NCBI GenBank assembly: GCA_023486985.1
Contig: JAMDEM010000028.1
Coordinates: 1 to 34,199, forward strand
Reading direction: 5' to 3'
DNA: 34,199 bases
Source: Bacillota bacterium
GTDB lineage: Bacteria > Vulcanimicrobiota > JAMDEM01
Part shown: positions 1,632-27,903 of the stretch, one piece after another
How the letters are laid out: the number at the start of each line of letters is the position of its first letter
Position numbering within the stretch: the first letter of the stretch is position 1
Program-made: the position numbers and the translations under genes
The notes under the pieces: model-generated
Seen by the model: only the letters and a program-made list of their open reading frames with translations
Told to the model about the DNA's origin: nothing
Database searches by the model: none

Positions 1632-2969
1632 GTGTCGAGTATGATATATAAAAGCGACAAAAACGAAATAATTGATATACTCCAGGACTGGAATCTCTGG
1701 AAAAGAGAACAAAGTTCAGGCATTCCCCGCGAAAAATACCTTGCCCGGCTAAAGAGCTTCATTGACACCAATCAAGTCATTACAATAACCGGCCCAAGAA
1801 GATCGGGGAAATCTTTTATCATGAAGCAAATGGCAAAAGCGCTCATCGAAAAAAGTAAAGTTAAGGCTGAAAATGTTTTGATAGTCAATTTAGAAGACCC
1901 CCGTTTCCCTGCTTTAAGCCTGAAACTTCTCGAGCAAATTTATGAAGCTTATCTTGAATTTTTATCTCCAAAAGGGCAGATTTTTATCTTTCTCGACGAA
2001 GTTCAGGAAATAGAAAGCTGGGAAAAGTGGGTAAGGATGATGCATGAATTAAGAAAAGCAAAAATTATAGTTTCAGGCTCGAATGCAAAACTGTTAAGCA
2101 GGGAGCTTGGCACGCTGCTTACAGGCAGGCATCTTGATTTGACTGTTTTTCCACTATCCTTTAAAGAATTTCTTGAATTTAATGGCGTTATTTTACTAGA
2201 CAGGCTGGATATAATAAACAGAAAAATTGAAATTAAAGGCTTATTGCGCAAGTACCTTGAATTTGGATCATTTCCTGAGGCTGTGCTATCGGAACAAAAA
2301 AAAGAGATTCTGCTTAACTATTTTGAAGACATTGTAAATAAGGATTTGCTAAGAAGGTTCAGAATAAGAAAATATCAGGATTTAAATGCGCTTGTCAAGT
2401 TCTATCTCAGCAATATATCCTCACTTGCCACCTACAGATCTCTTGAAAAATCTCTTAAAATATCTAATGACACTATAGAGAAATTTTCGGGTTATCTTGA
2501 GCAGGTTTATCTGGTGTTTCTGTTAAAAAGGTTTTCTTTTAAAGTGAGGGAGCAGGAAAATAGCCCCAGGAAAGTTTATGCGATTGACACAGGCTTGTGT
2601 AATGCAGTAGGTTTCAGATTTAGCGAAAATTTTGGCAGACTTGCTGAAAACCTTGTTTTTCTGGAATTGAAAAGGAGGCAGGCTTTAAAAATCGAGAAGG
2701 AACTTTATTTCTGGAAGGATGAATACCATAAGGAAGTTGACTTTTTAATAAAAGAGGGTTTGAGGGTTAAGGAGCTTATACAGGTTTGCTGGAACATAAG
2801 AAGCGAGAAAACAAAAAGCAGAGAGATAAGAAGCCTTCTGAAGGCGATGGATGAATTTGAACTTGACGAAGCAGCAATTATTACTGAAGATGACGAGGCA
2901 GAGGAAAAGATAAAGGGAAAAACAATTAGGTTTCTGCCATTGTGGAAATGGCTGCTTGAAGATGAGTGA
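1632..2969 (+). CDS. AAA+ ATPase of the COG1373 type (AAA_14 N-terminal domain plus DUF4143 / restriction-endonuclease-like C-terminal region)
   Basis: Walker A ITITGPRRSGKSF, Walker B IFIFLDEVQ and a C-terminal KEVDFLI acidic motif. The architecture matches the second ATPase at 6344..7723. The true start may be the ATG at 1641 rather than the GTG at 1632. Confidence 0.8.
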   Translation: MSSMIYKSDKNEIIDILQDWNLWKREQSSGIPREKYLARLKSFIDTNQVITITGPRRSGKSFIMKQMAKALIEKSKVKAENVLIVNLEDPRFPALSLKLLEQIYEAYLEFLSPKGQIFIFLDEVQEIESWEKWVRMMHELRKAKIIVSGSNAKLLSRELGTLLTGRHLDLTVFPLSFKEFLEFNGVILLDRLDIINRKIEIKGLLRKYLEFGSFPEAVLSEQKKEILLNYFEDIVNKDLLRRFRIRKYQDLNALVKFYLSNISSLATYRSLEKSLKISNDTIEKFSGYLEQVYLVFLLKRFSFKVREQENSPRKVYAIDTGLCNAVGFRFSENFGRLAENLVFLELKRRQALKIEKELYFWKDEYHKEVDFLIKEGLRVKELIQVCWNIRSEKTKSREIRSLLKAMDEFELDEAAIITEDDEAEEKIKGKTIRFLPLWKWLLEDE

Positions 2970-6308: not shown

Positions 6309-6355
6309 TTACAAATACATAAAAATGCCTTATAATTGCTATTATGAATAGCAAT
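6309..6355 (+). promoter_or_regulatory. Sigma70-like promoter (TTACAA-N16-TATAAT) overlapping a perfect 9-bp inverted repeat that encloses the ATG of the downstream ATPase; implies a leaderless or near-leaderless mRNA
   Basis: TTACAA is at 6309-6314 and TATAAT at 6331-6336. The arm attgctatt (6335-6343), the ATG (6344-6346) and the arm aatagcaat (6347-6355) form a perfect palindrome. No Shine-Dalgarno sequence lies upstream. A third attgctatt occurs at 6301-6309. Confidence 0.4.
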
Positions 6356-7723
6356 ATAATTCAAGAACATAATCCTTGGTGGCGCCGCCCGGAGTTTATT
6401 CTGGAAGATAATTTTCTTGCAGAGCTGGAGAGGCAAAAGTATCCTTTTTACCACTCGTTATACCACAGCCTTCCTGTCAATAAAGACGGCATTCTAACTT
6501 TGAGAGGACCACGGCGCATTGGCAAAACAACCCTTTTAAAACTCTTGATCAAGCGCCTGCTTTTGGAAGAGAAGGTGGAGAAAGAAAATGCGTTGTTCTT
6601 TCCCTGCGACACGATAAGTGATTACAAAGATTTGGAAAATTTGTTAACTTCTTACTTAAATTATGTCCGTCCCAAAAGTCAGAAGCGGCTTTTTATTTTT
6701 TTGGACGAAATTTCTTTTGTTAAGGAGTGGCAAAGAGCTATAAAGCTGCTTGCAGATTCAGGAAAATTGAAGAACTCTTTGGTTTTAATCACGGGTTCAA
6801 ATGTTTTAGACCTTAAATATTCTGCGGAACGGCTGCCGGGCAGGCGGGGAGAAATTTTTCCATGGGATATCACTTTCTTGCCCTTAACCTTCCATGAATT
6901 TATCACTCTTTTAAAACCAGAATTTTTAACCGATCCTCTCCCCGCTTCTCTTGCTCTCCTGCCTCATTTTCAAAAACTGTTTACTGATTATCTTATCTGC
7001 GGCGGCTTTCCCGTCACCATCAATGAGTACTTTGCTAAAGGCTACATATCTACCCAGACTTACGAGATTTTTTTGGCATGGATTGAAGGCGACCTGCACA
7101 GGGTGGGAAAATCAGAAAACTTTACTTATCAAATAATGAAGCGTCTTTTTGTTCATTTAACCAGCGCAATAAGTTTTTATAAATTAAGCCGGGAATCAGG
7201 CATTGCATCTCATACTACAGTTGAAGAATACCTGGAAATTTTTGAAAAAATGTTTATCATTTGCCGCCTGCCGTTTTTTTCTCTTGAGCAGAAACAGGTG
7301 TTTTTCCGCAAGAACAGCAAGGTTTATTTTGCCGACCCCTTTATTTTTAATTGCTTAAAAGCCAGGACAGAGGGATTTTCCCAGAATGCTTTTGCTTATA
7401 CCAGGGACTTTATTAACAGGGCTGACAACCGGCCGTCCTTAGTAGAAAATACTGCATGCTCCCATCTTCAGAGAAATTTCTCTTCTTTGTATTTTGGCCG
7501 CGCTGGCAATGACAAGGAAATTGATTTTGTCGGCTTCAAAGAAAGCAAATACTCGTACTTTGAAATTAAATATCAGGAAAAGGTTAAGGCGGAAGAATTT
7601 TCATGGGCAAAGAAAATTCTCGGTCACAGCAGGTTAACAGTTTTATGCCGGAAAGATTATCTGAAGGGAGAACTTTCGCTTATTCCCGCAGAGATGTTCC
7701 TTGGCTATTTTCGAACCATTTAA
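6344..7723 (+). CDS. AAA+ ATPase of the COG1373 type (AAA_14 plus DUF4143), diverged paralogue of 1632..2969
   Basis: Walker A LTLRGPRRIGKTT, Walker B LFIFLDEIS and a C-terminal KEIDFVGF acidic motif. Confidence 0.8.
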   Translation: MNSNIIQEHNPWWRRPEFILEDNFLAELERQKYPFYHSLYHSLPVNKDGILTLRGPRRIGKTTLLKLLIKRLLLEEKVEKENALFFPCDTISDYKDLENLLTSYLNYVRPKSQKRLFIFLDEISFVKEWQRAIKLLADSGKLKNSLVLITGSNVLDLKYSAERLPGRRGEIFPWDITFLPLTFHEFITLLKPEFLTDPLPASLALLPHFQKLFTDYLICGGFPVTINEYFAKGYISTQTYEIFLAWIEGDLHRVGKSENFTYQIMKRLFVHLTSAISFYKLSRESGIASHTTVEEYLEIFEKMFIICRLPFFSLEQKQVFFRKNSKVYFADPFIFNCLKARTEGFSQNAFAYTRDFINRADNRPSLVENTACSHLQRNFSSLYFGRAGNDKEIDFVGFKESKYSYFEIKYQEKVKAEEFSWAKKILGHSRLTVLCRKDYLKGELSLIPAEMFLGYFRTI

Positions 7724-7859: not shown

Positions 7860-8361
7860 CGAATGGCGACAATCCAGGCGGAGCCGTAGATAGCGCATGA
7901 GAAAACAAACTTGTTTATAAATTCGACCCCTGCAAATCACTGGCTGCTTGTAGGGAAATGTCAAGATTTTTGAGCAAGGCAGGGAATACAAATAACCCCG
8001 AAGGGGCAAGTGCCACGGGCTATACACGTGGGTATCTACTTTCAAAAATTCTCGCACAGGCTCCTGCGAAAATGTAGGCTCAGGAAGAGGATTTCTTTCT
8101 ATTTTCTGGAATCGCTGAGTTACCAGATCTAATTAATTATTCCAACATTCTTGAAGCGGGCTTTTAAAATTCATTCCTTTATGCCAATTCTTTATAGGAC
8201 ATTCAGCAACTTCACAGATAGCAGTCAGATGGTTGATAATGGCATCGTGTGCAAATTCCATATTATTTTATAAAGGTTCCGAGTGCATTCGTCTTTGGGA
8301 TACAGAAACCGACCTTTATAATAAAGGGCTAAAAATGTATCATGAGCAAAGGAGAATAAAA

Positions 8362-8826
8362 ATGGATATTAAAAAGATGCAACAAGTTTTCTTTGATTCT
8401 AGTGCTTTAATAAAATATTACAAGAAGGATGAAAAGGGTTGTGATAAAGTTTGGAAAATTCTTAATTCCAAAAATAGAGGATTTTCTGTAACTTGGCTAA
8501 CTATTGCTGAAGTGATAAATGTCTTAAAGTGTAGGCTTAATGGTAAAGAATTAATTGAGGCTCTAGATCGTCTTATTGCTGATATAAGCGGCCAGAAATT
8601 TGCAATTTTTTCACCTGAATCTGGTAAAAGTATATTTGATGTCACTCGACAGGTAGAAGAATACAAAGAAAAATACAATATAGACCTAGTTGATGCTTAT
8701 AATTTGCACTTTATAGATTCCGAATTCAGAAAAAGAAAATATACACCGAAACCTTTAATTGTATGCAGTGATAAAAAACTCAACAAAGCTTTTGAGGAAC
8801 TTGGATGGGAAGTTTGCGACCCATAG
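8362..8826 (+). CDS. PIN-domain protein (VapC-like ribonuclease fold) with no recognisable cognate antitoxin gene
   Basis: ORF track 8233..8826, trimmed to the ATG at 8362, which follows AAAGGAG. The acidic residues sit in PIN-like positions (VFFDSSAL, TIAEV, LVDAY, VCSDKKL). Confidence 0.65.
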   Translation: MDIKKMQQVFFDSSALIKYYKKDEKGCDKVWKILNSKNRGFSVTWLTIAEVINVLKCRLNGKELIEALDRLIADISGQKFAIFSPESGKSIFDVTRQVEEYKEKYNIDLVDAYNLHFIDSEFRKRKYTPKPLIVCSDKKLNKAFEELGWEVCDP

Positions 8827-8956
8827 GAATATATTTAATGCATAGTTTTTTCTCTTTTTCTCGCCAATTTCTTGACACTTGCTTGAATCTGAAGAATTGA
8901 AGCAAAGGTTGTTAATAAGATTAGGAAATCAGGCAAAAAGTAAGGAGGAAGCCATT

Positions 8957-9592
8957 ATGCCCAAAAGTTACATCGATATTTTTGAAGCAATCATAGGTAA
9001 TGATATTTCTGCTGTAGGAGAATTCATTAGCACGGGAGCAAATGTTAATTTAAAAAATAAAGATGGTTTTACACCTTTGCACCAAGCTGTATATAGAGGA
9101 TATAAAGATATTGTAGAATTGCTTATCAGCAAAGGAGCAGATATCAATGCAGAGGGTAAGTGGGGCGGGACGGCATTGCACAAGGCGGCATGGAAAAGTT
9201 ACAAAGATATAGCAGCGCTTCTAATTTCTAAAGGTGCCGATGTCAATGCAAAAGCTTATGATGGCTCGACGCCTTTGCACTGGGCCGTAGTGTTTGGCAA
9301 TAAAGATATTGTGGAATTGCTTATTAGTAAAAGCGCAAATGTCAACGCGAGAGATGAATCTGGCCTGACACCTTTACAGTATGCCTCAGATGAAAAACAA
9401 AGAAATGTTATGGAATTTTTTATCATCAAAAATGAAGACGGCCGTACGGCATTGTTCCCTGCTGCAGTAACAGGACAAAAAGATATTGTGGAATTGCTTA
9501 TCAACAAAGGAGCAGATGTCAATGCAAAAGATGAAACTGGCTTGACACCTTTGTATTCTGGGGAAAAGAAGTGGTGGCAGTTCTGGAAGTAA
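8957..9592 (+). CDS. Ankyrin-repeat protein (about 5-6 ANK modules)
   Basis: ORF track 8879..9592, trimmed to the ATG at 8957 after AAGGAGG. The module G-x-TPLH-x-A...G-x-KDIVELLISKGADVNA recurs, and the DNA-level repeat aaagatattgt(a/g)gaattgcttat occurs near 9106, 9303 and 9480. Confidence 0.85.
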   Translation: MPKSYIDIFEAIIGNDISAVGEFISTGANVNLKNKDGFTPLHQAVYRGYKDIVELLISKGADINAEGKWGGTALHKAAWKSYKDIAALLISKGADVNAKAYDGSTPLHWAVVFGNKDIVELLISKSANVNARDESGLTPLQYASDEKQRNVMEFFIIKNEDGRTALFPAAVTGQKDIVELLINKGADVNAKDETGLTPLYSGEKKWWQFWK

Positions 9593-10155: not shown

Positions 10156-10593
10156 TTACTTTCTTCGGTAACTCAAAATCTCTTTTGTTTTCCTGAGAAA
10201 TACGGTGGCGCTGTTAATCAATTTTTGAGCGCCATCTTCAGAGAAAGTGGACTCATAATCAGCGTTTTCTCTTAAAGCCATGGCAGTAAAGAAATCATCA
10301 CAAAGGCTTTTTTCCAGTTTGTTTGTATCCACAAATAGAGCTCTAACAGCAACTGCCAGGCAATAATGACTTTTTTCCCGTAAGCCCTGGGAATATAAGA
10401 GCGCTCTGGCTCCATGGAACATAGAATAATAAGCTTGAATAGTAGCCCATTTATGGTTTTTATTTTTAAAGCTTTCTCTGGCGCTTATAAGATCGTTTTC
10501 TGCCGAATCTATTTCCTTTGGGATAAGTCGTTTTCCCTGAGGAAAGCTTTTTATGCTATTTTTCTTCAGACATTTTTCATATTCCGGATCCAT
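10156..10593 (-). CDS. HEPN-domain protein (toxin partner of a HEPN-MNT module)
   Basis: 145 aa. The motifs AYYSMFHGARALL and LRENADYE resemble HEPN (PF05168). GGGAGGG lies before the ATG. The gene overlaps the upstream nucleotidyltransferase gene by 17 nt. Confidence 0.7.
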   Translation of the reverse strand: MDPEYEKCLKKNSIKSFPQGKRLIPKEIDSAENDLISARESFKNKNHKWATIQAYYSMFHGARALLYSQGLREKSHYCLAVAVRALFVDTNKLEKSLCDDFFTAMALRENADYESTFSEDGAQKLINSATVFLRKTKEILSYRRK

Positions 10594-11125
10594 CGCTTCC
10601 CTCCCATAAAATTATTCCTCTGTTTATTTGCTCAAAGAAAGCAGGTTCTTTTTTTTCAAGGTTCACATATTGCAAAGGAGTTTTTATAATTGGTTGGGTT
10701 TTTTCTCGCAGGGAACTGTTATGAAAAAATTTGAAAACAATTTCAGGGTGGTTGGTGAGGATAAAGATATCAAAGTCGCTTTCTTCTGTGTTAGTGCCTG
10801 AAGCAGCGCTTCCAAAAAGAATTATTTTTCTGCTGGCTTTCTTAATTTTTTCAAAAAGGGGAAACAAAGTGATTAAAGTTTGCAATATTTTAAATTGTCT
10901 TAAGAAGGGATTAGAAAGGTCTGTTCGATAAAACTTCATCCTTCCCCGTATTTCTTCTTCTACGAGTTTTGCTCTGGCAAGCTTTCTCATGGCATAATTT
11001 ATTCCAGAACGGCTTACGCCAGTGGCTTCCCGTATTTCTTTTTCCAGAAATTGCTTTTCTGGATGAAGAAGAAGAAAGGATAGAGCCTTTTGTTCGTTTG
11101 TTTTAAATAAGATATTTTTAATCAT
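10577..11125 (-). CDS. Minimal nucleotidyltransferase (MNT) fused to an N-terminal winged-helix DNA-binding domain (antitoxin/regulator of the HEPN-MNT module)
   Basis: The NTase motif is ILFGSAASGTNTEESDFDIFILT (G-S ... D-x-D). The N-terminal segment LEKEIREATGVSRSGINYAMRKLARAKLVEE is wHTH-like. The start is moved from the TTG at 11176 to the ATG at 11125 because the intervening 51 nt carry the promoter and operator repeats. Confidence 0.7.
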   Translation of the reverse strand: MIKNILFKTNEQKALSFLLLHPEKQFLEKEIREATGVSRSGINYAMRKLARAKLVEEEIRGRMKFYRTDLSNPFLRQFKILQTLITLFPLFEKIKKASRKIILFGSAASGTNTEESDFDIFILTNHPEIVFKFFHNSSLREKTQPIIKTPLQYVNLEKKEPAFFEQINRGIILWEGSDGSGI

Positions 11126-11132
11126 TTTAAAT

Positions 11133-11183
11133 CCAAAATTTTGGAATTGATTCCATTTTAATGGATTTGATTCCAAAAGTCAA
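11133..11183 (-). promoter_or_regulatory. Promoter (TTGACT-N17-TAAAAT) with overlapping operator repeats for the MNT-HEPN operon
   Basis: On the minus strand, -35 TTGACT is at 11183-11178 and -10 TAAAAT at 11160-11155 with a 17-nt spacer. Two 14-mers TGGAWTTGATTCCA lie at 11142-11155 and 11162-11175, 20 nt apart. A perfect 12-bp palindrome ccaaaattttgg lies at 11133-11144, just upstream of the ATG at 11125. Confidence 0.5.
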
Positions 11184-11197
11184 GCTACAAGAACAAT

Positions 11198-11227
11198 TTA
11201 CATTATAAAAATTTGTCGTGATATAAT
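11198..11227 (+). promoter_or_regulatory. Sigma70-like promoter TTACAT-N18-TATAAT for the 575-aa gene
   Basis: TTACAT is at 11198-11203 and TATAAT at 11222-11227. A G-rich Shine-Dalgarno sequence (aaaggggggg) lies at 11248-11257 before the ATG at 11264. Confidence 0.35.
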
Positions 11228-11263
11228 TTTGTATCCATTGAGGCAGTAAAGGGGGGGCGCAAA

Positions 11264-12991
11264 ATGGTTAAGAAAGACGGCGGAGGAGCTGTAAAGCATA
11301 TCTCAAAAATAGAGCCGGCGAAGCATGCATCCCAGACCCAGGCTAAACCATCAAGCTCATCATCTCACAAAGATACATCCACAAGCAGTACCACGCATAA
11401 AGATAATGTCAGTCTTTCCAGCCAGGCGGAGAAAGATGCCGCCCGCCAGCGCATAGATAATGAACATGATGAAGAATTAAAAAGACTGGATGAGGAAAAG
11501 CAGGCAAAAGAAAAGGCGCTGGAAGAGGAAAGAATAGCAAAAGAAAAAGCAATTGAAGAAGAGAAGCAGGCGCGCCTTAAGGCACTGGAGGAAGAGCAGA
11601 AGCAGAAGGAAACCGAACTTCAGGCACAGCGTCTTAATGAACAGGAAAAAGCGGCAAAAGAAGCGGCTTTGAAAGCCGAGATGGCTGCAAAGAAAAAGGC
11701 TCTTGAAGATGAGGTTGCCGGCAAGAAAAATGCCCTTGCCGGGGAAATTGCAGATAAGAAAGCCGCCATAGACGCCAAGTACCAGGCTAAGATTTCTGCC
11801 ATTGACGGACCCGCGCTTCCGCCGAACTTCAATGAAATGTCCCCCGAGGAGCAGTATAATTATCTTCATGATGTCTCAGTTGCCATGGCGGGCGGAGATG
11901 AAAGCCAGTGGAGAACCGGCGAAGACGAGTTGAATATCATCGGAATCCGCAGTTTTCAGAATGGACAGGCTGTACCGCCTGAAGGCAATGTTTATAATGA
12001 TACGATTTACGCCGTTCGCATGCATGACGGAAAGCCCGAAGTTTATGCTTTTCAGGGAAGCGTTGATGCAGGCGTGGTAAATAATCCCGGCTCCACCGGA
12101 TTCGGCTATGCAGACCCTAAAACAGGAAAGTACCTGGGATTTTCCGATCTTGCAGACGGCTTTTATCCCATAGGCACATGGACCAAAGGAGCAGTCCCGC
12201 ACAGCGGGCTGGGTCTACGCCAGAATGGAGATATAAAAATTAATGTTGACCTGAACAATGACGGTATTATCGAGGATAATGAGCGTCTTGGAGTAACTGA
12301 AGGAGCCGGGTGGGGAATACAGTTCCATCCGGGGGGCACGGGCGACCGTGTGGGGTTATGGTCGGCAGGCTGTCAGGTCATCAAGGGGGACCAGTGGGGA
12401 CTTTTCCAGAACCTGATAAGCGAGGATAAAAACAAGGATTTCGCCTACACCCTAGTTGACAGCGCAAACCTGCCGCCTGTTGACGCCAATCACAGAGCGG
12501 TTGGAGTGCCCAATACCCCGGTAGCCACAGGTTCGGGCGGAACGTCCATATCGGCGGGAAGTTCAGGAGCCGTCACCGGTACGACAGATGCAGGAGCGGT
12601 AACCTCCGGTGTTTCGTATCCTGTATATGCAGCTCCGCAGACAGGGTCTCCGCTGGGAGCCTCTTACACGGGAGGCGGTGTTAATGCGCCTTTCGGTCCT
12701 GATGCCGTTGATTCTGTGGAGACCGGCGCTAATATCGACCAACAGTTGCAGAGCCTATGCCAGGCGGCGACGCAGGAAATAATGGCGGCAAAAAAAGGCG
12801 GTTTTGCACAGGCGGGAGGAATGAGTCCTGCGGTCAGTGCCCTGTACTTTACATATGCGCAGGTGCTTCTGCAGCACTTGTCCATTAAGCCGGAAACAGA
12901 GCAAATGGTTGCCAATAGTCTTGCTATGGCGGGAATCAATGTCCAGCAGCTTAAACAGGTTATCTCCCAGAACGCAGGGAAGCCCATGTAA
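11264..12991 (+). CDS. Multidomain protein: FlgM-N-like leader, KE-rich coiled coil, YkuD-like (L,D-transpeptidase fold) catalytic motif, Gly/Ser/Thr/Ala-rich linker and a C-terminal helical region
   Basis: The leader is MVKKDGGGAV...HKDNVSLSSQAEKDA. A heptad-like E/K/A-rich segment spans about aa 60-180. The motif IQFHPGGTGDRVGLWSAGCQVI (His codon 12326-12328, Cys codon 12371-12373) gives H-x14-C with S-x-G-C, as in YkuD-type L,D-transpeptidases and related peptidoglycan effectors. There is no signal peptide. Confidence 0.55.
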   Translation: MVKKDGGGAVKHISKIEPAKHASQTQAKPSSSSSHKDTSTSSTTHKDNVSLSSQAEKDAARQRIDNEHDEELKRLDEEKQAKEKALEEERIAKEKAIEEEKQARLKALEEEQKQKETELQAQRLNEQEKAAKEAALKAEMAAKKKALEDEVAGKKNALAGEIADKKAAIDAKYQAKISAIDGPALPPNFNEMSPEEQYNYLHDVSVAMAGGDESQWRTGEDELNIIGIRSFQNGQAVPPEGNVYNDTIYAVRMHDGKPEVYAFQGSVDAGVVNNPGSTGFGYADPKTGKYLGFSDLADGFYPIGTWTKGAVPHSGLGLRQNGDIKINVDLNNDGIIEDNERLGVTEGAGWGIQFHPGGTGDRVGLWSAGCQVIKGDQWGLFQNLISEDKNKDFAYTLVDSANLPPVDANHRAVGVPNTPVATGSGGTSISAGSSGAVTGTTDAGAVTSGVSYPVYAAPQTGSPLGASYTGGGVNAPFGPDAVDSVETGANIDQQLQSLCQAATQEIMAAKKGGFAQAGGMSPAVSALYFTYAQVLLQHLSIKPETEQMVANSLAMAGINVQQLKQVISQNAGKPM

Positions 12992-13040: not shown

Positions 13041-13421
13041 TCAGCCCTTCCATATCTTTATATCATCCATGGGATAATGTCTTAAATTCAAAGTGTAAAA
13101 AGAAGCTTTAGTAAATTTAGCGGTAGCTGCAAGCAGGGAGTCCCCAAGCTGCAACCCATGACTTTTACGGAATCTGCGCAGGTAAAATCCTGCAATCTTT
13201 GATATCTCGTCGTCTATGGGAATGCATTGCATGGTTTGAAAAAGGCGGTAAGTCTTTTCCTCCTCACCCCTGCGCATTCCCTGAAAAATTTCCGCCATTG
13301 TTACAGGAGAGTAAAGGAAAGTATGCCCTTCTTTATATAAATTCTCAAAAGACTTTAAAACCGCGGAATTGCCTCTTAATGCTTCAATAAGAACATCAGT
13401 ATCGATAAGGAATTCGCTCAT
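13041..13421 (-). CDS. vapC: VapC-family PIN-domain toxin
   Basis: The N-terminus MSEFLIDTDVLIEAL is typical of VapC, with further acidic residues in PIN positions. An ATGA overlap joins it to the upstream antitoxin gene. Confidence 0.8.
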   Translation of the reverse strand: MSEFLIDTDVLIEALRGNSAVLKSFENLYKEGHTFLYSPVTMAEIFQGMRRGEEEKTYRLFQTMQCIPIDDEISKIAGFYLRRFRKSHGLQLGDSLLAATAKFTKASFYTLNLRHYPMDDIKIWKG

Positions 13422-13687
13422 CTGCGGGAAAGCCTTTCCAAACGCTTATCCTCACGGAGGCTCTTTAAATAATCTTCAGTCTTTCCCAAATCCTGTCTGT
13501 TCTTCCAGATTCCTGCCACGGTATTTAAGGCATCCAGGAAACTTTCTCCTTTTTTCCCTGCATAGACCTTGTCAACAGCCTCCCGGATTAACTGTGCCAT
13601 CGTAACTTTGTTTTTTCGGCTTAATATTTGCAGGATTTGCCATTCATCGTTCGATAAATATATTTGCGTCCTCTTCAAGGAATTCAC
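13418..13687 (-). CDS. Ribbon-helix-helix (CopG/VapB-like) antitoxin
   Basis: KRTQIYLSNDEWQILQILSRKNKVTMAQLIREAVDKVY fits the RHH pattern (beta strand then two helices). A 4-nt overlap joins it to vapC. The real start may be the TTG at 13678, preceded by GAGGTGA, rather than the GTG at 13687. Confidence 0.7.
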   Translation of the reverse strand: MNSLKRTQIYLSNDEWQILQILSRKNKVTMAQLIREAVDKVYAGKKGESFLDALNTVAGIWKNRQDLGKTEDYLKSLREDKRLERLSRR

Positions 13688-14330: not shown

Positions 14331-16316
14331 TTATTTGTATGGCACATTCAACGCCTTCAGCTTCGTCTGGAGGTCTTTTAAATTTTGCATGGCATTATTG
14401 TAATAGGAGTAAGCTGCTTTAAAGTCTATTATAAGAGCGTTTGATATGAAAAGGTTGTTCATATCGGGCGGTTCAGGATAAAATTCATCCGTTTGCCCTT
14501 CCTTAATAGCCTCCGTAACTTTTTTCATATATCGCAGATAAAATAACTCATCGTATAAGATGAATGGTCTTTTGAAAAAGCCGTATTCGATTGTGGTCTT
14601 GATTTCACTGGAGATTGAAGTGCCTGCCAGAATATACTGCAAAGGGGTATTAGAAACTGAAAGTTTTTTAAAATACTCAATCCCCATAACCCTTCCGCCC
14701 TGTAAAACTCTGAAAAAGGCTCCATCCATTTCCTTTTCCAGCAAACTAAGCTCTTTTATAAGTTTGCTGTAGTCTGTTTTAATTGATCGTTCTATCATAA
14801 TTTTTATGGGTCCGGAGATAATTTTTTGTAATGACTCATTGCATGCAAGTGCAAAGAGATAGTAATTATTTGTGTTTAAGTTTTTAAGAAAGCGAAGTTC
14901 ATAAACGCAGTCATCAACTGCTTTTTGAATTTCATTATTTTCAAGGTCATAGTATGCTTTGATAGCCATATCTTGAGCTATTCTCCGAATTTTTATAAAA
15001 TTAAGAATTTTCATCTCCAGACCCTTTTCATAATCTAGATTGAACCGGCACTTTGGCTTATTGTAAGCTTTGATCAGCAGGTTAACAACTTCTTTTTTGC
15101 TCTCCAGTTCCTGCCTGATTTCTCCCTTATGTTTATTAAAATATTCCGAATAATTCTTATCTCCCGGTAATTCCTCATAAATTGGATACCCGGCAGTTGG
15201 AATACGCTCTATGGCATCAGTGTAAAATTTGGCGGCATTTTCTTCATCAGGTATCCGGGGCGGAATAATCTGGTAAATTTCGTAGAATTCTCCCTTTTGC
15301 TTGATTGAGTTAATTTCATTGTCAACTTTTTGAGAGAGAATCCATCCTGAGCCAAAATACAGAAAAATATAAAGACAGAGAAATATAATCAAAAGAGGTA
15401 ATATAAGAAACTTGATTTTCAGGGTCTTGCCTTCTGAAACAATACAGCCCTTTTTTAATTTCTCGATAATTCCATAAAAGGTTAATGTGTTATAAATATC
15501 AAGTGCAAAAAATCCTGCAAGTCCTGCAATTAGAATCCCAAGTAGAGACCTTACTTCAGACAGCCAGAATATGCATTCCAATATTCCGATTAAAAAGGCG
15601 ATGGAAAGAATTAAATAAACAGGCAAAAAATACTTTTTAAATATTTTTTTATATATTTCTGCCGTTGCAAGGGCAAACTGTTCTTTTTCATTTAAAACCA
15701 CTTCATTTATTAAGCCTAAATCAAAAAGCTCTTCATTCGTAAGTCCCTTTGCCTTGATTTCTTCAATGGAGGGTATTGCTCCATCTTCTTGAGCGCTGCG
15801 GGCTCCGTGAGATTGGATGGTTTTTCTTAAACCTTCCATATAGATTATTTTACCGGCTTCTTTTCGCTGTTTCTGCGTAAATCTTTTATCAAACCACCAG
15901 ATTACAGGACTGTAGGCAATGAAAAAGCCTCCAATCCATGGATAGCCTGCTGCCCAGACAATAGCTCCTGCAATTGCCATCACACCAACCCAAATCAAAG
16001 ACCGGATTCTTTCTCTCTGGCTTCTCTCACGATAGAAATCCGAGACATCCGGCAGATTATCGCTTCTTATCAACTTTATTCTTATTCCAGCGAGTGCATT
16101 AATAAAATCAACAGAAATAAAACAAAACAGTCCAAATATTATTAAAGTGATTCCACCTACAAGGTTTGACTCTGTGGCTTCAAAAAATATATATTTAAAT
16201 ACAACCGATATAGCCTTAAAAATTATTAGAGCGTATAAGACATCATTGAAGCGGGACATCCATTTGTTTGTATAACCGACAGTAAGTAATCTTTGTTCTT
16301 TCTCATTTAAAGTCAT
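14331..16316 (-). CDS. Large polytopic membrane protein of unknown function with an internally duplicated N-terminal membrane module and a ~340-aa helical-repeat soluble C-terminal domain
   Basis: 661 aa with about 7 hydrophobic segments in the first ~320 aa. The module LNEKEQ plus two TM helices plus I-x-KL occurs twice (aa 3-85 and about 208-295). The C-terminal half is rich in helical K/E/Y/N repeats. I recognise no family signature. Confidence 0.6.
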   Translation of the reverse strand: MTLNEKEQRLLTVGYTNKWMSRFNDVLYALIIFKAISVVFKYIFFEATESNLVGGITLIIFGLFCFISVDFINALAGIRIKLIRSDNLPDVSDFYRERSQRERIRSLIWVGVMAIAGAIVWAAGYPWIGGFFIAYSPVIWWFDKRFTQKQRKEAGKIIYMEGLRKTIQSHGARSAQEDGAIPSIEEIKAKGLTNEELFDLGLINEVVLNEKEQFALATAEIYKKIFKKYFLPVYLILSIAFLIGILECIFWLSEVRSLLGILIAGLAGFFALDIYNTLTFYGIIEKLKKGCIVSEGKTLKIKFLILPLLIIFLCLYIFLYFGSGWILSQKVDNEINSIKQKGEFYEIYQIIPPRIPDEENAAKFYTDAIERIPTAGYPIYEELPGDKNYSEYFNKHKGEIRQELESKKEVVNLLIKAYNKPKCRFNLDYEKGLEMKILNFIKIRRIAQDMAIKAYYDLENNEIQKAVDDCVYELRFLKNLNTNNYYLFALACNESLQKIISGPIKIMIERSIKTDYSKLIKELSLLEKEMDGAFFRVLQGGRVMGIEYFKKLSVSNTPLQYILAGTSISSEIKTTIEYGFFKRPFILYDELFYLRYMKKVTEAIKEGQTDEFYPEPPDMNNLFISNALIIDFKAAYSYYNNAMQNLKDLQTKLKALNVPYK

Positions 16317-16599: not shown

Positions 16600-17166
16600 A
16601 TGAAAAAATCACTTGGAGCAAAGACTCTAGCTTATCCTGCGCCCGTGTGGGTGGTTGGGACATACGATAAAGAAGGAAAGCCGAATATGATGACAGCCGC
16701 ATGGGGAGGAGTTTGCTGTTCTTCGCCGCCGTGCATTTCTGTCTCTTTAAGGAAAGCAACATACACCTATGATAATATAGTGCAAAGAAAAGCATTCACT
16801 ATAAATGTGCCTTCCGAAAAATTTGCCAATGAAGTGGACTACATTGGTATAGCATCGGGCAGGGATGTTGACAAGTTTTCAGAAACCGGTCTTACTGCGG
16901 TAAAAAGCGATGCGGTGGATGCGCCCCTGGTAAAAGAATTCCCCCTGGTCATTGAATGCAAACTTCTGCAAACAAATGAAATCGGGCTGCACACTCAATT
17001 TATCGGCGAAATCGTGGATGTGAAAGCTGATGAATCCGTGCTTGACGACGGGGGGCATCCGCAGATGGAAAAGATAAAGCCTTTTGTGTATGATACCGGA
17101 ACAAGATTATATTATGGAATCGGGCAATGTCTTGGAAAAGCTTTTTCCATGGGAAAGAAGAAATAG
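16600..17166 (+). CDS. Flavin reductase-like FMN-binding split-barrel protein (flavoredoxin family)
   Basis: [59 protein letters not shown] matches the Flavin_Reduct (PF01613) pattern. GGGAGG lies before the ATG. Confidence 0.8.
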
Positions 17167-17227
17167 CCTGAAGAGTACAGGGCGCAGCAGCGCATGGAAT
17201 AATACGATAAATAGCGAAAGCAGGAAC

Positions 17228-18292
17228 ATGATAAACCATTCAAGATTTTCAATGATGCATAAGCTGGCGTCATTGCTTGTTATTATGCTTTTACTGCTTG
17301 GCATGGGTTGCGGGAATAACCCTGTCAGCAGCATTGGAATCCCTCCGATAAATGCACTTGCATCAGGTGACGGAATCACCATCACCGGCCAGCCGGGTGC
17401 GCTGCCTCCAGGCGTGGCTCTTACTATTACCGCCCTGACCCAGGCACAGGCGCAGGCAGCCGCAGCACTTGCCGGCAATCAAATATTTGTTGCCGCCGGC
17501 GACTTTGGACCTGACGGCACAACGTTTTATGCTCCGGTAACGATAAACTTCCCATTACCTAATCAGCTGGCACCCGGAACAAGACTGCCCTTTTACATGC
17601 TCCAGAATAATGCCTGGGTTAATACCGGTACCGTAGCCATTGTAGGCAGCGACGGACTTACTGCCAGTGCACAGGTGACCCACTTTACAAAGTACATCCT
17701 CTTCCTTGATGATTCCTGGGTAAAGGTATCTTTCGGCGGAAACACACTCATTTCCAAGAGTGGCGGCATACCTTTAACTGCTTTAAATAACCCTATTGTG
17801 CTTGTTTCGGGGAAAACTACCGATGAAACTGTAATTGCGAAGGTCATGGAAGTCAACAATATGAGCAGGGCTGATGCAGTTTATTTTTTGCGGTCCTATG
17901 ATACTTCAGGGGATAAAGTGGTTCAGGTTCTGAGATTAACGGCAGGGGTTATAGTTACCCGTTACTGGCCAAATGATCCTGCCGGAAAGCTCGGACGCTG
18001 GTTTAATGTTATTGACAGCACCACACTATATTTACCTGATAGAGCCAGGCAGTATTATGCCCTTCCGAATTCCAATACGGCATTGAATGTTACCCAGTAC
18101 CTGCTCAAGCCAGGTGCTACAGTGGTTTACGGTGTCTGTGCGGACATGACATGGAGCCCGACCTTTGGACCTTATGCCACAGGGGGAGGCTACCAGATTT
18201 ATGTTTATAGTGCAACAACATGGGACGGACACGCCGCACATTTAAATCCTGATGTCGTGGAAATACAGACGGAATTAAGGTACACGGAGTGA
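17228..18292 (+). CDS. Exported (probable lipo)protein with a C-terminal TNT-like (NAD+ glycohydrolase toxin, PF14021-like) domain
   Basis: ORF track 17084..18292, trimmed to the ATG at 17228, which gives MINHSRFSMMHKLASLLVIMLLLLGMGCGNN (signal peptide plus Cys). The C-terminus reads TRYWPNDPAGKLGRWFNV...RARQYYALP...VTQYLLKPGATVVYG...TFGPYATGGGYQIYV. It follows the TNT/DUF4237 pattern R-Y-G...G-R-F...R-x-LP...Y-x-V-x-KP...G...FGQPGGG-x-Q. Confidence 0.45.
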   Translation: MINHSRFSMMHKLASLLVIMLLLLGMGCGNNPVSSIGIPPINALASGDGITITGQPGALPPGVALTITALTQAQAQAAAALAGNQIFVAAGDFGPDGTTFYAPVTINFPLPNQLAPGTRLPFYMLQNNAWVNTGTVAIVGSDGLTASAQVTHFTKYILFLDDSWVKVSFGGNTLISKSGGIPLTALNNPIVLVSGKTTDETVIAKVMEVNNMSRADAVYFLRSYDTSGDKVVQVLRLTAGVIVTRYWPNDPAGKLGRWFNVIDSTTLYLPDRARQYYALPNSNTALNVTQYLLKPGATVVYGVCADMTWSPTFGPYATGGGYQIYVYSATTWDGHAAHLNPDVVEIQTELRYTE

Positions 18293-18296
18293 AGCC

Positions 18297-18800
18297 ATGA
18301 ACTTGCCGGACAATGTAAGCCAGACAGAATTATTTAACAGAATCAAGAGTATCTATACAGAGGTCACGCAAAACAATGTTCATATTCCGGAAAATGTGAC
18401 AGGTTATATAAGAGAAATTATCAAATGTTTGACTGGGAACCGGCTGGATTTAGAACAACTCTCCTCATATGCAAACGGGATACTTTACTGGTATTATGAT
18501 CAGGGATTCAGGGAAGTACCGATGCATGTTGCGTTGTCAAGATTTGCACTTGATATAGTCAAGATGTGCGACATAACGAAAACACTCTCGCAGGTTGAAT
18601 CGTTGTTGTTCCGGACTAAAGCTCCGGCTGACCTTCGAGAAATAGCGGGCATCCTCAAAAATCTGCTGGCAATATTCGCTCCGGACGGCAGGATGGATGA
18701 GGAGCGTTATAGCAAACTTGTCCCTCAATTGAGGGATTTATGCGTATCCAATGAAGAGATTCTTAAGAAATCCGTTGACCACGCAATATTTTATATTTAA
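18297..18800 (+). CDS. Hypothetical protein; candidate cognate immunity protein of the TNT-like toxin
   Basis: 167 aa, cytosolic and helical. It starts 4 nt after the toxin stop, and its Shine-Dalgarno sequence (ACGGAG) lies inside the end of the toxin gene, which indicates translational coupling. I recognise no family signature. Confidence 0.35.
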   Translation: MNLPDNVSQTELFNRIKSIYTEVTQNNVHIPENVTGYIREIIKCLTGNRLDLEQLSSYANGILYWYYDQGFREVPMHVALSRFALDIVKMCDITKTLSQVESLLFRTKAPADLREIAGILKNLLAIFAPDGRMDEERYSKLVPQLRDLCVSNEEILKKSVDHAIFYI

Positions 18801-18838
18801 CGCCTGTGTCCGGAAAAACAAAGGAGAAAAAAATTCTT

Positions 18839-19372
18839 CTATCTGCCTGCAAGTTTTGCGGCGTAGTTGTACGCCTGTAAGCACCACTCTTTTTCTGCCT
18901 CAAGCCATCCTCCGAGTATCCATTCTTCTCCTATTAGCGACAGGCGCAAAATTATTTTGCTTGAGGAGAAAGAGTGAATCCTTTTGGCACCGGCTCTTAA
19001 AGCCTCTTCAAGCACTTTATCCGGCAGGCGGAGCGTGTAAACATGTGTGCCTTCGGCCCATCCGAAAATGATGCCGGAGACCGGATGGACAAGAACGGCG
19101 GTTCCATAAATTACCCAACGGCATGATTCGGGCAGATTCACAGTTATTTCGTCCCACAGGCGTTCTACAACATCAGGGTGCGTTCCGAGGCTGATATAGG
19201 GTTTTTCTACGCTTTTGGGCGATTGGCTTGCTTTAATTTTTACCAGGTCGTTTTCTCGCAGGCTCAGGCATCTAAGGATAAAAGTAGTGTCCTGAGACAG
19301 GTAGAAAAAGTAAGGATTCTTGAGGTATTCAAGCACTTTTGTGTTAACCGGATGTGAAAAATCAACATTCAT
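18839..19372 (-). CDS. Hypothetical protein
   Basis: A 177-aa ORF convergent with 18297..18800, with no recognisable motifs. Coding status is inferred only from its length and the absence of a competing ORF. Confidence 0.4.
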   Translation of the reverse strand: MNVDFSHPVNTKVLEYLKNPYFFYLSQDTTFILRCLSLRENDLVKIKASQSPKSVEKPYISLGTHPDVVERLWDEITVNLPESCRWVIYGTAVLVHPVSGIIFGWAEGTHVYTLRLPDKVLEEALRAGAKRIHSFSSSKIILRLSLIGEEWILGGWLEAEKEWCLQAYNYAAKLAGR

Positions 19373-19559
19373 TCTGCCTGTCTCGTTTCCCCTTTTTGTT
19401 CAATTTGCCCGCTCCTAACAATTTAACGGATATTTGTTGTTTTGTCCAGAGTCATCAGGAGGTTACTCAAGGGTTGCCATGCAATTTAAAGAAGGAGTTT
19501 CCATATAAGAAACGAAAATGCGGAGATTGAAATCGTGTTGACGCGAGGAGGGAACCTGG

Positions 19560-20240
19560 ATGACAAAGATAAAGTTGATAAAAGGAACCATGGCTGTTCT
19601 GATGATTGTTTTTCTCGGTATCGGGTTTGCCTTAGCCCAGGGCAATTATCCGGCAAAGATGAAGGAGGGCCAGACATATAAATCATTTTTTGTCGACCTT
19701 AACAAAGACGGGCATAAGGAGAAAATCGCTGTTAAGGTCTATGGAGTTTCCGGTTATGAGTGGTTCGCCCAGATTGTGGTTTTTGATTCATCCGGAAAAG
19801 TTATCTGGAAAGGCCCGGCAGACAAGAACAGGGCTAACCCGCTTGTTTTCGGCAATTTTGACTATGGTTCCGCCCTTCCTGAGGTTGTCCGGGATATGGA
19901 CGACGATGGCAGTGTTGAGATGATTGCTACAACACCTGTCTCGGATGTTAGGCCCCAGCCGTTTCGTCTTTTCCGCTGGAACGGAAAGAAGTTTGTTTAT
20001 GTTTTTATTAAGACACTGATGGAAAAACCGGCCGGTTCAGGAGTTTTTGTCTGGTCAAAGCCGGGACCGCCTGAAGGCTGCTGGATAACGGAATTAAGAG
20101 AAATTAAAGAATATAAAAATTTTATTGCCGAAGTGTTTGAGTATAAAAAAGAAAAGACGAGGGGCGGCAGTGCCGAGGTAGCCTCTTCAGCGGCTGGATT
20201 TAAAGTAGTGAAATGGATTAAGCCTCTGAAATCATTTTGA
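19560..20240 (+). CDS. Secreted hypothetical protein with FG-GAP/VCBS-like Asp-rich loops
   Basis: The signal peptide is MTKIKLIKGTMAVLMIVFLGIGFALAQG. Calcium-loop-like DLNKDGHKEKI and RDMDDDGSVEMI segments are present. AGGAGG lies upstream of the ATG. Confidence 0.55.
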   Translation: MTKIKLIKGTMAVLMIVFLGIGFALAQGNYPAKMKEGQTYKSFFVDLNKDGHKEKIAVKVYGVSGYEWFAQIVVFDSSGKVIWKGPADKNRANPLVFGNFDYGSALPEVVRDMDDDGSVEMIATTPVSDVRPQPFRLFRWNGKKFVYVFIKTLMEKPAGSGVFVWSKPGPPEGCWITELREIKEYKNFIAEVFEYKKEKTRGGSAEVASSAAGFKVVKWIKPLKSF

Positions 20241-21882: not shown

Positions 21883-21955
21883 ATTTTGCGATTGAAAACT
21901 CTGCAGCCTTGCTGCGGAGTGTCGTGCCGCAAAACAAGCTTTGCTTATTTTTTTT
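21883..21955 (+). repeat. Structured 70-nt element, copy 2 (first copy at 7790-7859), ending in a T-run; possible intrinsic terminator between convergent genes
   Basis: attttgcgattgaaaactctgcagccttgctgcggagtgtcgtgccgcaaaacaagctttgcttatttttttt. It has the same two nested stems as copy 1. Its 3' T-run overlaps the last codons and stop (21945-21947) of the TolC-like gene on the other strand. Confidence 0.75.
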
Positions 21956-26300: not shown

Positions 26301-26503
26301 TCAATTGGCTTGGTTATCTGACTTTCTACCTGTTCAGTCTGTGCTCCAGGAAGAGTTGTGGAGATAACAACAAAAGGGAAATCAATTTTGGGGTCCAGGT
26401 CAACGCCAAGCTGGAAGTATGAAAAAATCCCCAGAACTACAAGGGAAAGATTTATCATCATTGCCAGAACGGGGCGGCGTATGAAAGTGCTGAAAAAATT
26501 CAC
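23378..26503 (-). CDS. RND efflux transporter, inner-membrane permease (AcrB/HAE1 superfamily), operon 2
   Basis: 1041 aa with the N-terminus FIRRPVLAMMINLSLVVLGI, VVGLVIDDAIVVLENI and a 12-TM layout with two large periplasmic loops. Confidence 0.9.
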   Translation of the reverse strand: MNFFSTFIRRPVLAMMINLSLVVLGIFSYFQLGVDLDPKIDFPFVVISTTLPGAQTEQVESQITKPIEDAVAVLSGVYIITSTSSESSSTVVIQFVLEKNPDVAAQDVRDKIALIRNQFPVGTQDPVVQKYDPSSMPVVVLAVYGERDPKEISEFTRRNIKDFISSVDGVGQVNMVGTQYREIQVNLKADKMDAYNLSVNQVTKALQDQNADIPGGKVTSKYNEYTLRTSGRLKTIDAFNDIVVSSVKGTPIKIKDIGFVVDGTKELKTISRFSGKPTLTLQIVKNSDANLVDVVDKVKARVKELEKMLPPDIHVMVVEDTSVYIKESVHDIMEHLVIGGGLASLMVLIFMGSLRSTFIAAIAIPASIIATFTIMKMMNFTLNYMTLLALALVVGLVIDDAIVVLENIWRLMEEEGYSAYEASIKGIQDVGPAVFATTLSLMVLFVPVAFMSGLVGRYFQSYGLTMAAAIFFSMIVSFTLTPMLCSKLLKPPVQKGKKEPGKLTRILQDIYEVVLKWSLRWRWVIILFCVASLWWGKDIAGKLGSEFTTAEDRSEYRISIKMPKGWPIERTSDAIKPLEEELLKMRGVDYILTTIGTPSVSGDQDNMSSDISKVGIYVHLIDYNKRKDYTQFQAMLDARKLLRKYKLFKSSVQLASGAGGSAGSDLMFSLQGEDLNVINKASSDILKKLSQIPGYVDIDTDFEIASPEIKVNIDRDRAADLNVNIADVSSALRTLVGGDKITNYQEGIWLYDVRTRLTKEDRNNPDSIKKMYITSADGKLVSLAGIADINTGLGPSTITHFNRQRNVTISANLENYPQVKAMEDVAKIVKDLNLPPGYSISYRGSSQYVGETASAFAMAFVLAVIFMYMVLASQFENLMDPFIILLTMPLSIPFALFALYITGKTLNLFSALGLFLLFGIVKKNAILQIDHTNTFIRQGMEFHKAIIRANRERLRPILMTTLTIVVGMLPVALAGANAAQRSPMAVVVVGGQSLCLVLTLLLVPVALSYVEDLQRIKQWPIWSKLKGKSRSDEKTKEKGEE

Positions 26504-26505
26504 GG

Positions 26506-27795: not shown

Positions 27796-27903
27796 TTTTA
27801 AATAACTTTCTTAAAGTAATTTTTAGTGTTTTTCTATTCCCGTGAATTTATTTCCTTGTTAAGCAAGTAATCTGGACAAAATCAAGAACATGGAAAAGAG
27901 CAG

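Follow-up and report, generated by a model that had tools for sequence, protein, structure and literature searches.

A predicted peptidoglycan peptidase from a Vulcanimicrobiota genome and the unnamed Cys-His family of its core domain

Peptidoglycan peptidases that combine Cys and His in a YkuD-like active site are already known. The L,D-transpeptidase motif has been given as H-x14-17-(S/T)-H-G-C (PMC9638812), and a fuller YkuD consensus comprises phi-G-phi-H-G-(S/T) and G-C-phi-R-(M/L) (PMC12729407). The Tlde1 effectors of type VI secretion systems (T6SS), L,D-carboxypeptidase/exchange enzymes, have a divergent YkuD-type fold with the former motif, in which a Ser supports the His, and show that this fold is used offensively and without a Sec signal (PMC9638812). 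DUF5675, an uncharacterized domain widely distributed in phages and bacteria, was proposed from structure to be C82-like (bioRxiv 10.64898/2026.04.11.717860), and VanW enzymes carry a Cys-His-small triad on a fold unrelated to that of YkuD (PMC12729407). The gene described here is located on contig JAMDEM010000028.1 (assembly GCA_023486985.1; Vulcanimicrobiota), of which a stretch of 34,199 nt, referred to as the window, was analysed. Its coding sequence, 11264..12991 on the plus strand, comprises 575 aa and a stop codon.

Other described proteins are of interest for the architecture of the product. FlgM is the anti-sigma-28 factor exported by the flagellar type III secretion system, and FlgJ is the flagellar peptidoglycan hydrolase. 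EnvC, PcsB, CwlO and RipC, proteins with an ftsEX link, carry LytM, CHAP or NlpC/P60 domains, and the known proteins of this type have Sec signals.

On the whole of the evidence, it is fairly probable that the gene is native and codes for a lineage-conserved peptidoglycan peptidase, the core of which belongs to a large unnamed lysin-type Cys-His family, distantly YkuD-like (MEROPS C82-like). The family is new in being neither modelled nor named in the libraries and sources checked, and it is set apart from YkuD by its size, its motif and additional invariant residues. The long form of the protein, which has no classical export signal, is unusual in architecture.

Core domain and its relation to YkuD-fold enzymes

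The AlphaFold model of the core was compared by Foldseek with 350,542 chains of the PDB. The two best matches were both YkuD-fold peptidoglycan enzymes, the L,D-carboxypeptidase Pgp2 of C. jejuni (6xj6; E 1.2e-3, probability 0.99) and the L,D-transpeptidase 4lpq (E 0.049), and PDB entries of LdtMt2 of M. tuberculosis were recovered at ranks 14, 21 and 33. The core was characterized by the motifs IIGIR (aa 225–229), NVYNDTIYAV (aa 242–251) and IQFHPGGTGDRVGLWSAGCQVIKG (aa 352–375), all of them within a globular region and at the positions indicated by the initial annotation, a reading of the sequence alone. The last motif reads I352-QFH355-PGGTGDRVGLW-S367-A-G-C370-Q-VIKG375, with 14 residues between H355 and C370, the latter being the sole Cys of the core. 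H355-x14-C370 and S367-A-G-C370 conform to the pattern His-x14-17-(S/T)-x-G-Cys (PMC9638812; PMC12729407). According to DSSP, the models share the local topology of YkuD: one strand terminates in the His, a loop of 14 residues follows, and S-x-G-C then leads into a strand and a helix.

The sequence of B. subtilis YkuD, checked against the PDB, was used to build a YkuD alignment (shallow, effective number of sequences 2.4). When the profile of 162 family sequences and the core alignment were compared by hhalign with this alignment or with the YkuD sequence, the sole local alignment placed H355 on the catalytic His of YkuD (IHGTN) and C370 on its catalytic Cys (SKGCIR), at a level that was not significant (P 0.15 for the 162-sequence profile, 0.15–0.21 in all). 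A repeat with the core alignment recovered the register of the S-x-G-C segment.

This lack of significance is one of several points that weigh against the proposed explanation. The template modelling scores (TM-scores) of the core to YkuD-fold structures were 0.29–0.35, with a root-mean-square deviation of 8.5–10 Å, compared with 0.56–0.60 as reported for pairs of true YkuD domains (PMC12729407). At the sequence level, nothing linked the core to YkuD or to any other characterized family. Even at E ≤ 10, the window protein gave no match to YkuD (PF03734) or to a related Pfam or NCBIfam model, and no YkuD-type model was reported for the 26 close homologues described below or among the 25 listed of the 28 families in 56 multidomain relatives. 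A sequence match in the PDB was obtained neither with the full protein nor with two core profiles. The window motif, G-I-Q-F-H-P-G-G and G-C-Q-V-I, is devoid of HG(S/T) and of C-phi-R; a conserved Arg two positions past the Cys was absent from the 162 members, and Gln371 was present in 160 of them. Since VanW has the same triad on an unrelated fold, the resemblance to YkuD could be convergent. Additionally, the core is strongly acidic (net charge −17), unlike many endolysins, the members are named 'hypothetical protein' in RefSeq and UniProt, the leader of the window protein scored 12.8 bits against a FlgM cutoff of 40.75, and no export route was identified.

The initial annotation had seen in the His-to-Cys spacing and the S-x-G-C context a match to the L,D-transpeptidase fold, and had proposed a structural comparison with YkuD. 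The motif spacing and the identity of the two top fold matches agreed with that view, but the TM-scores remained near 0.3 and no YkuD profile matched. We read the core as a family of its own, outside Pfam YkuD, in which the active site, and probably also the fold, bears a distant likeness to YkuD (C82-like).

In the mechanism proposed, H355 would act as general base and deprotonate C370, which would then attack a stem-peptide bond of peptidoglycan as nucleophile. S367 may support the His, as S128 does in Tlde1a (PMC9638812), and the invariant D246 would line the substrate groove together with R229, N224, Y301 and Q371. The bond would be cleaved or exchanged in an L,D-carboxypeptidase- or endopeptidase-like manner; hydrolysis rather than cross-linking is expected, given that phages appear to use the domain as a lysin. 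The gene and its segments, the conservation of residues, the ranking of the fold matches, and the domain fusions and phage occurrence of the family are observations; for the window protein we infer catalysis, the bond cleaved, export and the physiological role.

Distribution of the core family in bacteria and phages

A search covering 5.8 billion proteins yielded 26 full-length or partial homologues. Most of them came from metagenome-assembled genomes (MAGs) of Eremiobacterota (= Vulcanimicrobiota) or 'Xenobiia', and a few from MAGs whose labels read Chloroflexota, Armatimonadota, Synergistia or Deltaproteobacteria. The block corresponding to aa ~185–410 was common to all 26, with H355, S367, A368, G369, C370 and Q371 invariant. 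The closest clade also had in common the leader, the helices, the linker and the C-terminal module. This long form (leader, A/E/K-rich helices, core, linker and C-terminal module) was confined to Eremiobacterota-like MAGs, and the clade holds the same architecture at 49–58% identity across many MAGs. The helical stalk was missing from clade members P0012–P0015 and P0018–P0022, and distant homologues swap or add modules, namely LysM (P0017), a glycosyl-hydrolase core (P0020) and Peptidase_C39_2 (P0023). Three paralogues of the domain were present in MAG Zod_Metabat.937, labelled Deltaproteobacteria (loci L011, L012 and L029); the L011 paralogue begins with 'MAIIMDGGGS' followed by a Thr-rich stretch, resembling the leaders of P0004–P0006.

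A scan of species-representative genomes with the single protein as query gave no matches, and an alignment-based scan of the same genomes gave 262 relatives in many phyla. When 1.84 billion representatives were searched exhaustively with a profile, the core family came to at least 2,059 clusters (counted at 50% identity) with E ≤ 1e-3, of which 538 had E ≤ 1e-10. Conservation among 162 aligned diverse members was complete for D246 (162) and nearly so for G369 and Q371 (160 each), C370 and R229 (158 each), H355 (157) and S367 (155), and the H...S-x-G-C-Q signature was found in nearly all of 142 distant representatives. Pfam and NCBIfam hold no model of this family.

The 56 multidomain relatives associated the core domain most visibly with PG_binding_1 (18 of 56), and further with PG_binding_3, LysM, SH3_3, M23, GH19, glucosaminidase, Amidase_2, SLT, VanY, SpoIID, VgrG3-like C, Phage_base_V, the extracellular contractile injection system (eCIS) core, Pesticin and WXG100. 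The core domain was also embedded in proteins of 900–3,400 aa. Six of the 56 carried a caspase-like Peptidase_C14, an unexpected partner for a wall-lytic module. Partner domains of the relatives matched endolysin PHROGs, and 55 of the 56 relatives, which had been found with the profile of the window domain, matched phrog_3000 (best E 5e-44), labelled 'unknown function' in PHROGs. By sequence, the core would be equivalent to the phrog_3000 domain of these relatives, on whose proteins the match was scored.

Against phage proteins, the core model gave strong fold matches (TM-score 0.55–0.76) to uncharacterized proteins, one of them named 'Lysin'. Among phages, homologues were carried by crAss002 and further crAss-like phages, by DAC and SJC of Bacteroides, by ACA1/2 of Pseudoalteromonas, by phi1422 of Bdellovibrio and by two phages of more than 630 kb, almost always with the annotation 'hypothetical protein'. 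In crAss-like and several other cultured phages the domain of about 190 aa stands alone (Table 1), and there it may be an endolysin or virion lysin that has escaped recognition. Stand-alone proteins of about 200 aa were also present in Gilvimarinus, Pseudoalteromonas and Microbulbifer, in the first two adjoining sheath- and tube-sized open reading frames (ORFs). In Gilvimarinus japonicus (NZ_AP031500.1; L038 6123-9524), a prophage- or tailocin-like block consists of a sheath 50% identical to the tail sheath of phage C5a, a tube-sized ORF and then the stand-alone domain, 3' of which a 111-aa lipoprotein (possibly spanin-like) and a lipase-like ORF of 210 aa were observed. A similar prophage- or tailocin-like block of sheath, tube-sized ORF and stand-alone domain was observed in Pseudoalteromonas luteoviolacea (L064 6364-9889).

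Because the family is fused to peptidoglycan-directed domains and stands alone in phages and prophages, peptidoglycan is almost certainly its substrate, and the core is very probably a Cys/His enzyme acting on it. Such fusions and contexts are to be expected of a catalytic module that cleaves peptidoglycan. The fusions to peptidoglycan-binding and -hydrolysing partners support the designation as a candidate peptidoglycan enzyme in the initial annotation. A Sec signal carried by one Elusimicrobia relative is consistent with an extracytoplasmic substrate.

Gene, protein architecture and genomic context

The ATG at 11264 is the first start codon past an in-frame stop, so that an N-terminal extension is impossible, and the annotated start is supported by the preceding Shine–Dalgarno-like AAGGGGGGG. 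The promoter in Table 1 is a candidate read by eye; a consensus promoter scan missed it because its spacer is long, and no sigma-28-type promoter was seen upstream of the gene. Since the flanking genes on either side are on the opposite strand, the gene is monocistronic. A signature of horizontal transfer was rejected: the G+C content of the gene was 0.514 compared with 0.43 for the window, yet its G+C content at third codon positions (GC3), 0.503, was inside the range of the housekeeping-type genes of the contig. The Shine–Dalgarno-like and promoter-like sites of its own also speak for a native, housekeeping-like gene. The real GC3 outliers were the flanking toxin-antitoxin genes, three of the four being low (0.26–0.40). 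The HEPN, nucleotidyltransferase and further PIN ORFs showed the lowest values of the contig (0.26–0.34), and the bracketing PIN pair (0.40–0.49) did not.

The full-length AlphaFold model, built on the 26 homologues, gave the same five segments in the same order as the initial annotation (Table 1). Composition and low confidence bore out the Gly/Ser/Thr/Ala-rich linker, and the helical C-terminus was recovered as a compact helical domain (aa 488–570) with the conserved residues L-C...L-Y-x-x-Y...P-E-T-E...L-A-x-A-G-I in the family alignment. For the second segment, announced as about 120 aa of E/K/A-rich coiled coil, two long A/E/K-rich helices were confirmed (A21/E20/K18 %, together 59% A/E/K), broken at aa 122–125. 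No clear heptad periodicity was found in the stalk, so that the term coiled coil is not established; the helices could instead pack as a hairpin or form one stable helix. The stalk gave weak TolA-type matches of a compositional nature, and no tandem DNA repeats were found in the sequence of the helical region. The fold search of the full-length model against the PDB returned generic long-helix matches only.

Sec signal and transmembrane segment were absent from the protein, as the initial annotation had stated for the former: the maximum 19-aa Kyte–Doolittle mean was 1.1 (−0.04 for the first 70 aa). Tat and lipoprotein signals were likewise absent from the 575 aa. The substrate would lie outside the cytoplasmic membrane, and a Sec-independent route to the wall is therefore required, for which the conserved leader would be the best candidate export signal.

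An M-x-I-type start, an S/T-rich tract and then D-x-V-x-L-[ST]-x-x-A were common to the leaders of 17 of the 26 homologues, D47 and V49 each being at least 90% conserved in the leader alignment. When Ser was required at position six, no ORF outside the family carried the pattern among 535 in about 250 kb of lineage loci; it is for this reason considered a real family feature, and on the same count a leader shared with other cargo was rejected. Thirteen leaders were scanned against NCBIfam at a permissive threshold. Among the NCBIfam models, that of FlgM, TIGR03824, matched the largest number of leaders (6/13, best E 0.014); the leader of the window protein gave E 0.15 (aa 15–62 on profile positions 8–57 of 98). 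Low-complexity families matched about as often (New_glue 6/13, MapZ 5/13), and Pfam FlgM (PF04316) did not match the leaders. Of the 'FlgM-N-like leader' in the initial annotation, the conserved motif was thus retained, but not a similarity to FlgM above the cutoff. Flagellar or type III export is unsupported, as this similarity is sub-threshold and flagellar genes were not found near the gene in seven loci.

The C-terminal modules of 14 members gave no FlgM match, and no family matched more than one of the 14. A 'split FlgM', composed of a FlgM-like N-terminus and a C-terminal sigma-28-binding module, was rejected because these modules gave no consistent match. The profile of the C-terminal module, searched against 5.8 billion proteins, had as its sole match P0289, a stand-alone copy of 79 aa, and no carrier outside the clade; a widely shared sorting domain was rejected on this result. 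The P0289 ORF was observed 61–71 nt 3' of a leader-bearing, P0023-like gene of about 630–655 aa (L004 2176-4381; L005 ~589-2867). Its occurrence as a separate ORF in two metagenome contigs points to an autonomous C-terminal module that may work in trans, the alternative being a frameshift common to both contigs.

Table 1. Coordinates of features of the gene and protein, of neighbouring toxin-antitoxin (TA) genes and of stand-alone domains in phages. pLDDT, predicted local distance difference test; pTM, predicted template modelling score.
Feature	Sequence	Coordinates	Strand	Remarks
Candidate promoter	Window	11197..11227	+	TTTACA 11197-11202, 19-nt spacer, TG-extended -10 TGaTATAAT 11219-11227
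Shine–Dalgarno-like AAGGGGGGG	Window	11249..11257	+	Run of seven G; ends 6 nt before ATG
Disordered leader, aa 1-50	Window	11264..11413	+	pLDDT <50; S22/K16/T10 %; net charge +4; no hydrophobic segment
Leader motif D47-N-V-S-L-S-S-Q-A55	Window	11402..11428	+	Family pattern D-x-V-x-L-[ST]-x-x-A
A/E/K-rich helical stalk, aa 51-181	Window	11414..11806	+	Helices 51-121, 126-181; pLDDT 84-98
Predicted catalytic core, aa 185-410	Window	11816..12493	+	AlphaFold pLDDT 91, pTM 0.89
Putative active-site motif IQFHPGGTGDRVGLWSAGCQVIKG, aa 352-375	Window	12317..12388	+	H355 codon 12326-12328; C370 codon 12371-12373
Disordered linker, aa 414-486	Window	12503..12721	+	pLDDT 24-41; G21/A14/S14/V12/T12/P10 %; length variable among homologues
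C-terminal helical module, aa 487-575	Window	12722..12988	+	Helices 488-511, 522-536, 543-555, 560-570; pLDDT ~90
Further PIN-domain ORF	Window	8233-8826	+	
HEPN + nucleotidyltransferase (winged-helix N-terminus)	Window	10156-11176	-	TA-type pair
PIN + 89-aa upstream partner	Window	13041-13687	-	TA-type pair
Stand-alone ~190-aa domain, crAss002	MN917146.1	3318-3851		
Stand-alone ~190-aa domain, cr107_1	MT774377.1	6016-6552		
Stand-alone ~190-aa domain, Bacteroides phage SJC03	MT074146.1	20497-21051		
Stand-alone ~190-aa domain, Pseudoalteromonas phage ACA1	OR438928.1	22006-22575		
Stand-alone ~190-aa domain, Bdellovibrio phage phi1422	JQ177062.1			

The neighbourhood was compared in seven loci, the window and six homologue loci. 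The window gene lies between the HEPN/nucleotidyltransferase pair and the PIN/antitoxin pair, and the neighbours in the six homologue loci were entirely different. No conserved operon partner (immunity, flagellar, T6SS, type VII secretion system (T7SS), eCIS or FtsEX) was found in the seven loci; the search for a nearby immunity gene suggested in the initial annotation thus had a negative outcome. Flagellar genes were absent from the 34-kb window and the six homologue loci. The P0019 homologue was observed 87 nt 3', on the same strand, of a cluster encoding N_methyl (prepilin-type) and the T2SS-F platform of type II secretion systems (L087 5710-11707), and this type IV pilus/T2SS-like cluster was the only locus hinting at a link to a trans-envelope machine.

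Elsewhere in the window, positions 8879-9592 (+) encode a 237-aa protein made up almost wholly of ankyrin repeats (Ank E 4e-47), in a bacterial contig. Two consecutive resistance-nodulation-division (RND) efflux sets (OEP, AcrB-type pump and HlyD-type adaptor, each twice) occupy 21945-33883 (-) and indicate a diderm host. Paralogous AAA_14 + DUF4143 ATPases, at 1632-2969 (+) and 6344-7723 (+), surround a GH125/GH130 mannoside-utilization pair. No Pfam match at E ≤ 1e-3 was obtained for a 661-aa ORF with hydrophobic stretches at 14331-16316 (-), or for four ORFs of 402, 167, 177 and 226 aa at 17084-20240.

Alternative explanations and comparison with known systems

The role of the protein is most likely the remodelling of the cell's own wall rather than attack on other bacteria. 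This is favoured over a polymorphic toxin because the neighbours differ among loci, the architecture is conserved at the identity given above and GC3 is native. Use of the same domain as an effector elsewhere is evident from its fusion partners, and the window protein itself could be an antibacterial effector, that is, a peptidoglycan-degrading toxin delivered by a contact-dependent or contractile system for which a Sec signal would be unnecessary. The fusions to VgrG3-like C, Phage_base_V, eCIS_core, WXG100 and Pesticin and the occurrence within very large proteins agree with this, as do the precedent of Tlde1, a T6SS effector of YkuD fold (PMC9638812), the three paralogues in MAG Zod_Metabat.937 and the absence of a signal peptide. 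It is nevertheless unlikely: the alternative is weakened because neither a conserved immunity-like neighbour nor genes of a T6SS, T7SS or eCIS were found in the seven loci, trafficking domains of the PAAR, VgrG, Rhs, LXG or MIX type are missing from the long form, and the protein is conserved in the way of an orthologue set, with native GC3. A Cys-His enzyme that is convergent or unrelated, with an H...SxGC that is no relative of YkuD and a substrate that may not be peptidoglycan, would account for the missing sequence homology and the low TM-scores, with VanW as precedent (PMC12729407), and the fusion of six relatives to Peptidase_C14 also speaks for it. Set against this are the two YkuD-fold peptidoglycan enzymes at the top of the Foldseek list, the His/Cys register recovered independently by hhalign and the overwhelming association with peptidoglycan-binding and lysin modules, which make it very improbable.

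Two further alternatives concern the way in which the enzyme would be exported or controlled. With flagellar type III (FlgM/FlgJ-like) export, a FlgM-derived leader would bring out an enzyme that opens the wall for the assembly of a rod or trans-envelope machine. The leaders do resemble FlgM N-terminal halves (M-x-I-[DN] start, S/T tract, D-x-V-x-L-S-x-x-A), TIGR03824 matches more of them than any other NCBIfam model, no Sec signal is present and P0019 is directly 3' of the type IV pilus/T2SS-like cluster. However, the FlgM scores are far under the cutoff, MapZ and New_glue match about as often, there is no match to Pfam FlgM and no FlgM likeness in the C-terminal module, flagellar genes were not found in the seven loci and no sigma-28-type promoter was seen. 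Moreover, neither flagella nor flagellin are present in the only cultured member of the phylum (PMC9758169), which is, however, of another class; little probability is therefore given to such export. Nothing was found in the literature on flagella in class Xenobia. An autolysin controlled by the divisome or elongasome, of the EnvC/PcsB/CwlO/RipC type, in which the helix hairpin would dock on a regulator such as FtsEX and switch the hydrolase on, appears about equally improbable. It would agree with the two long helices N-terminal to a peptidoglycan-hydrolase-type domain, with the native, housekeeping-like appearance of the gene and with EnvC of the FtsEX-EnvC complex (8tzl_E) as the rank-1 PDB match of the full-length model, but this match was not significant (E 0.21, probability 0.16) and long helices match generically. 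Additionally, the family lacks Sec signals, ftsEX is not adjacent in the seven loci and the clade members named above are without the stalk. As for the leader, it might be a genuine Sec-independent signal, FlgM-derived and type III-like or of an undescribed route, which brings a phage-lysin-type peptidase to the envelope of Eremiobacterota-like bacteria, where stalk and clade-specific C-terminal module would position it as a functional analogue of FlgJ or EnvC built from different parts; we consider this combination unlikely.

In the preferred explanation, a native wall peptidase, the enzyme of the long form would be placed between the leader and a helical stalk of ~130 residues upstream and the flexible linker and helical module downstream. 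The core family is spread over many bacterial phyla and phages, including crAss-like phages, Bacteroides phages and P2-like prophages. If the assignment is true, thousands of unannotated lysis, effector and autolysin genes would gain a function, an extra candidate catalytic module would become available for engineered lysins, and the lysin of several crAss-like phages, so far unrecognized, may be identified. In practical terms, the annotation gap at family level and the presence in crAss-like phages arguably matter more than this one gene.

Compared with Pgp2 (6xj6), Csd6, YkuD and LdtMt2 (PF03734, MEROPS C82), the core is alike in His...(S/T)-x-G-Cys with 14 intervening residues and in the presumed peptidoglycan substrate. 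It differs in size (~230 aa versus ~110–130 aa for YkuD domains), in the family motif G-I-x-[IF]-H-x-G-G...S-A-G-C-Q-V versus phi-G-phi-H-G-(S/T)...(S/T)-x-G-C-phi-R, and in extra invariant residues (D246, R229, N224); the window protein is not Sec-exported, unlike these enzymes. Compared with Tlde1, the window protein is much larger and multi-module, with neither a T6SS context nor an adjacent immunity gene, and Pfam Tlde1/DUF2778 did not match it or the 26 close homologues. A weak structural match of the core to a DUF5675 protein was obtained (E 0.015, probability 0.66), but Pfam DUF5675 matched neither the window protein nor the 26 close homologues and was not among the 25 listed of the 28 families in the 56 relatives. 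The core family is thus distinct from DUF5675, and its strong phage fold matches are other, unnamed proteins.

The long helices N-terminal to a hydrolase-type domain constitute an architectural analogy with EnvC, PcsB, CwlO and RipC, from which the window protein differs in having no Sec signal, no LytM, CHAP or NlpC/P60 domain and no ftsEX link. The M-x-I start, S/T-rich tract and D-x-V-x-L-S-x-x-A of the leader resemble the disordered N-terminal half of FlgM; the sigma-28-binding C-terminal domain of FlgM is absent from the window protein. Compared with FlgJ, the window protein has no Rod_binding or glucosaminidase domain according to Pfam, but the concept of a Sec-independent peptidoglycan hydrolase is parallel.

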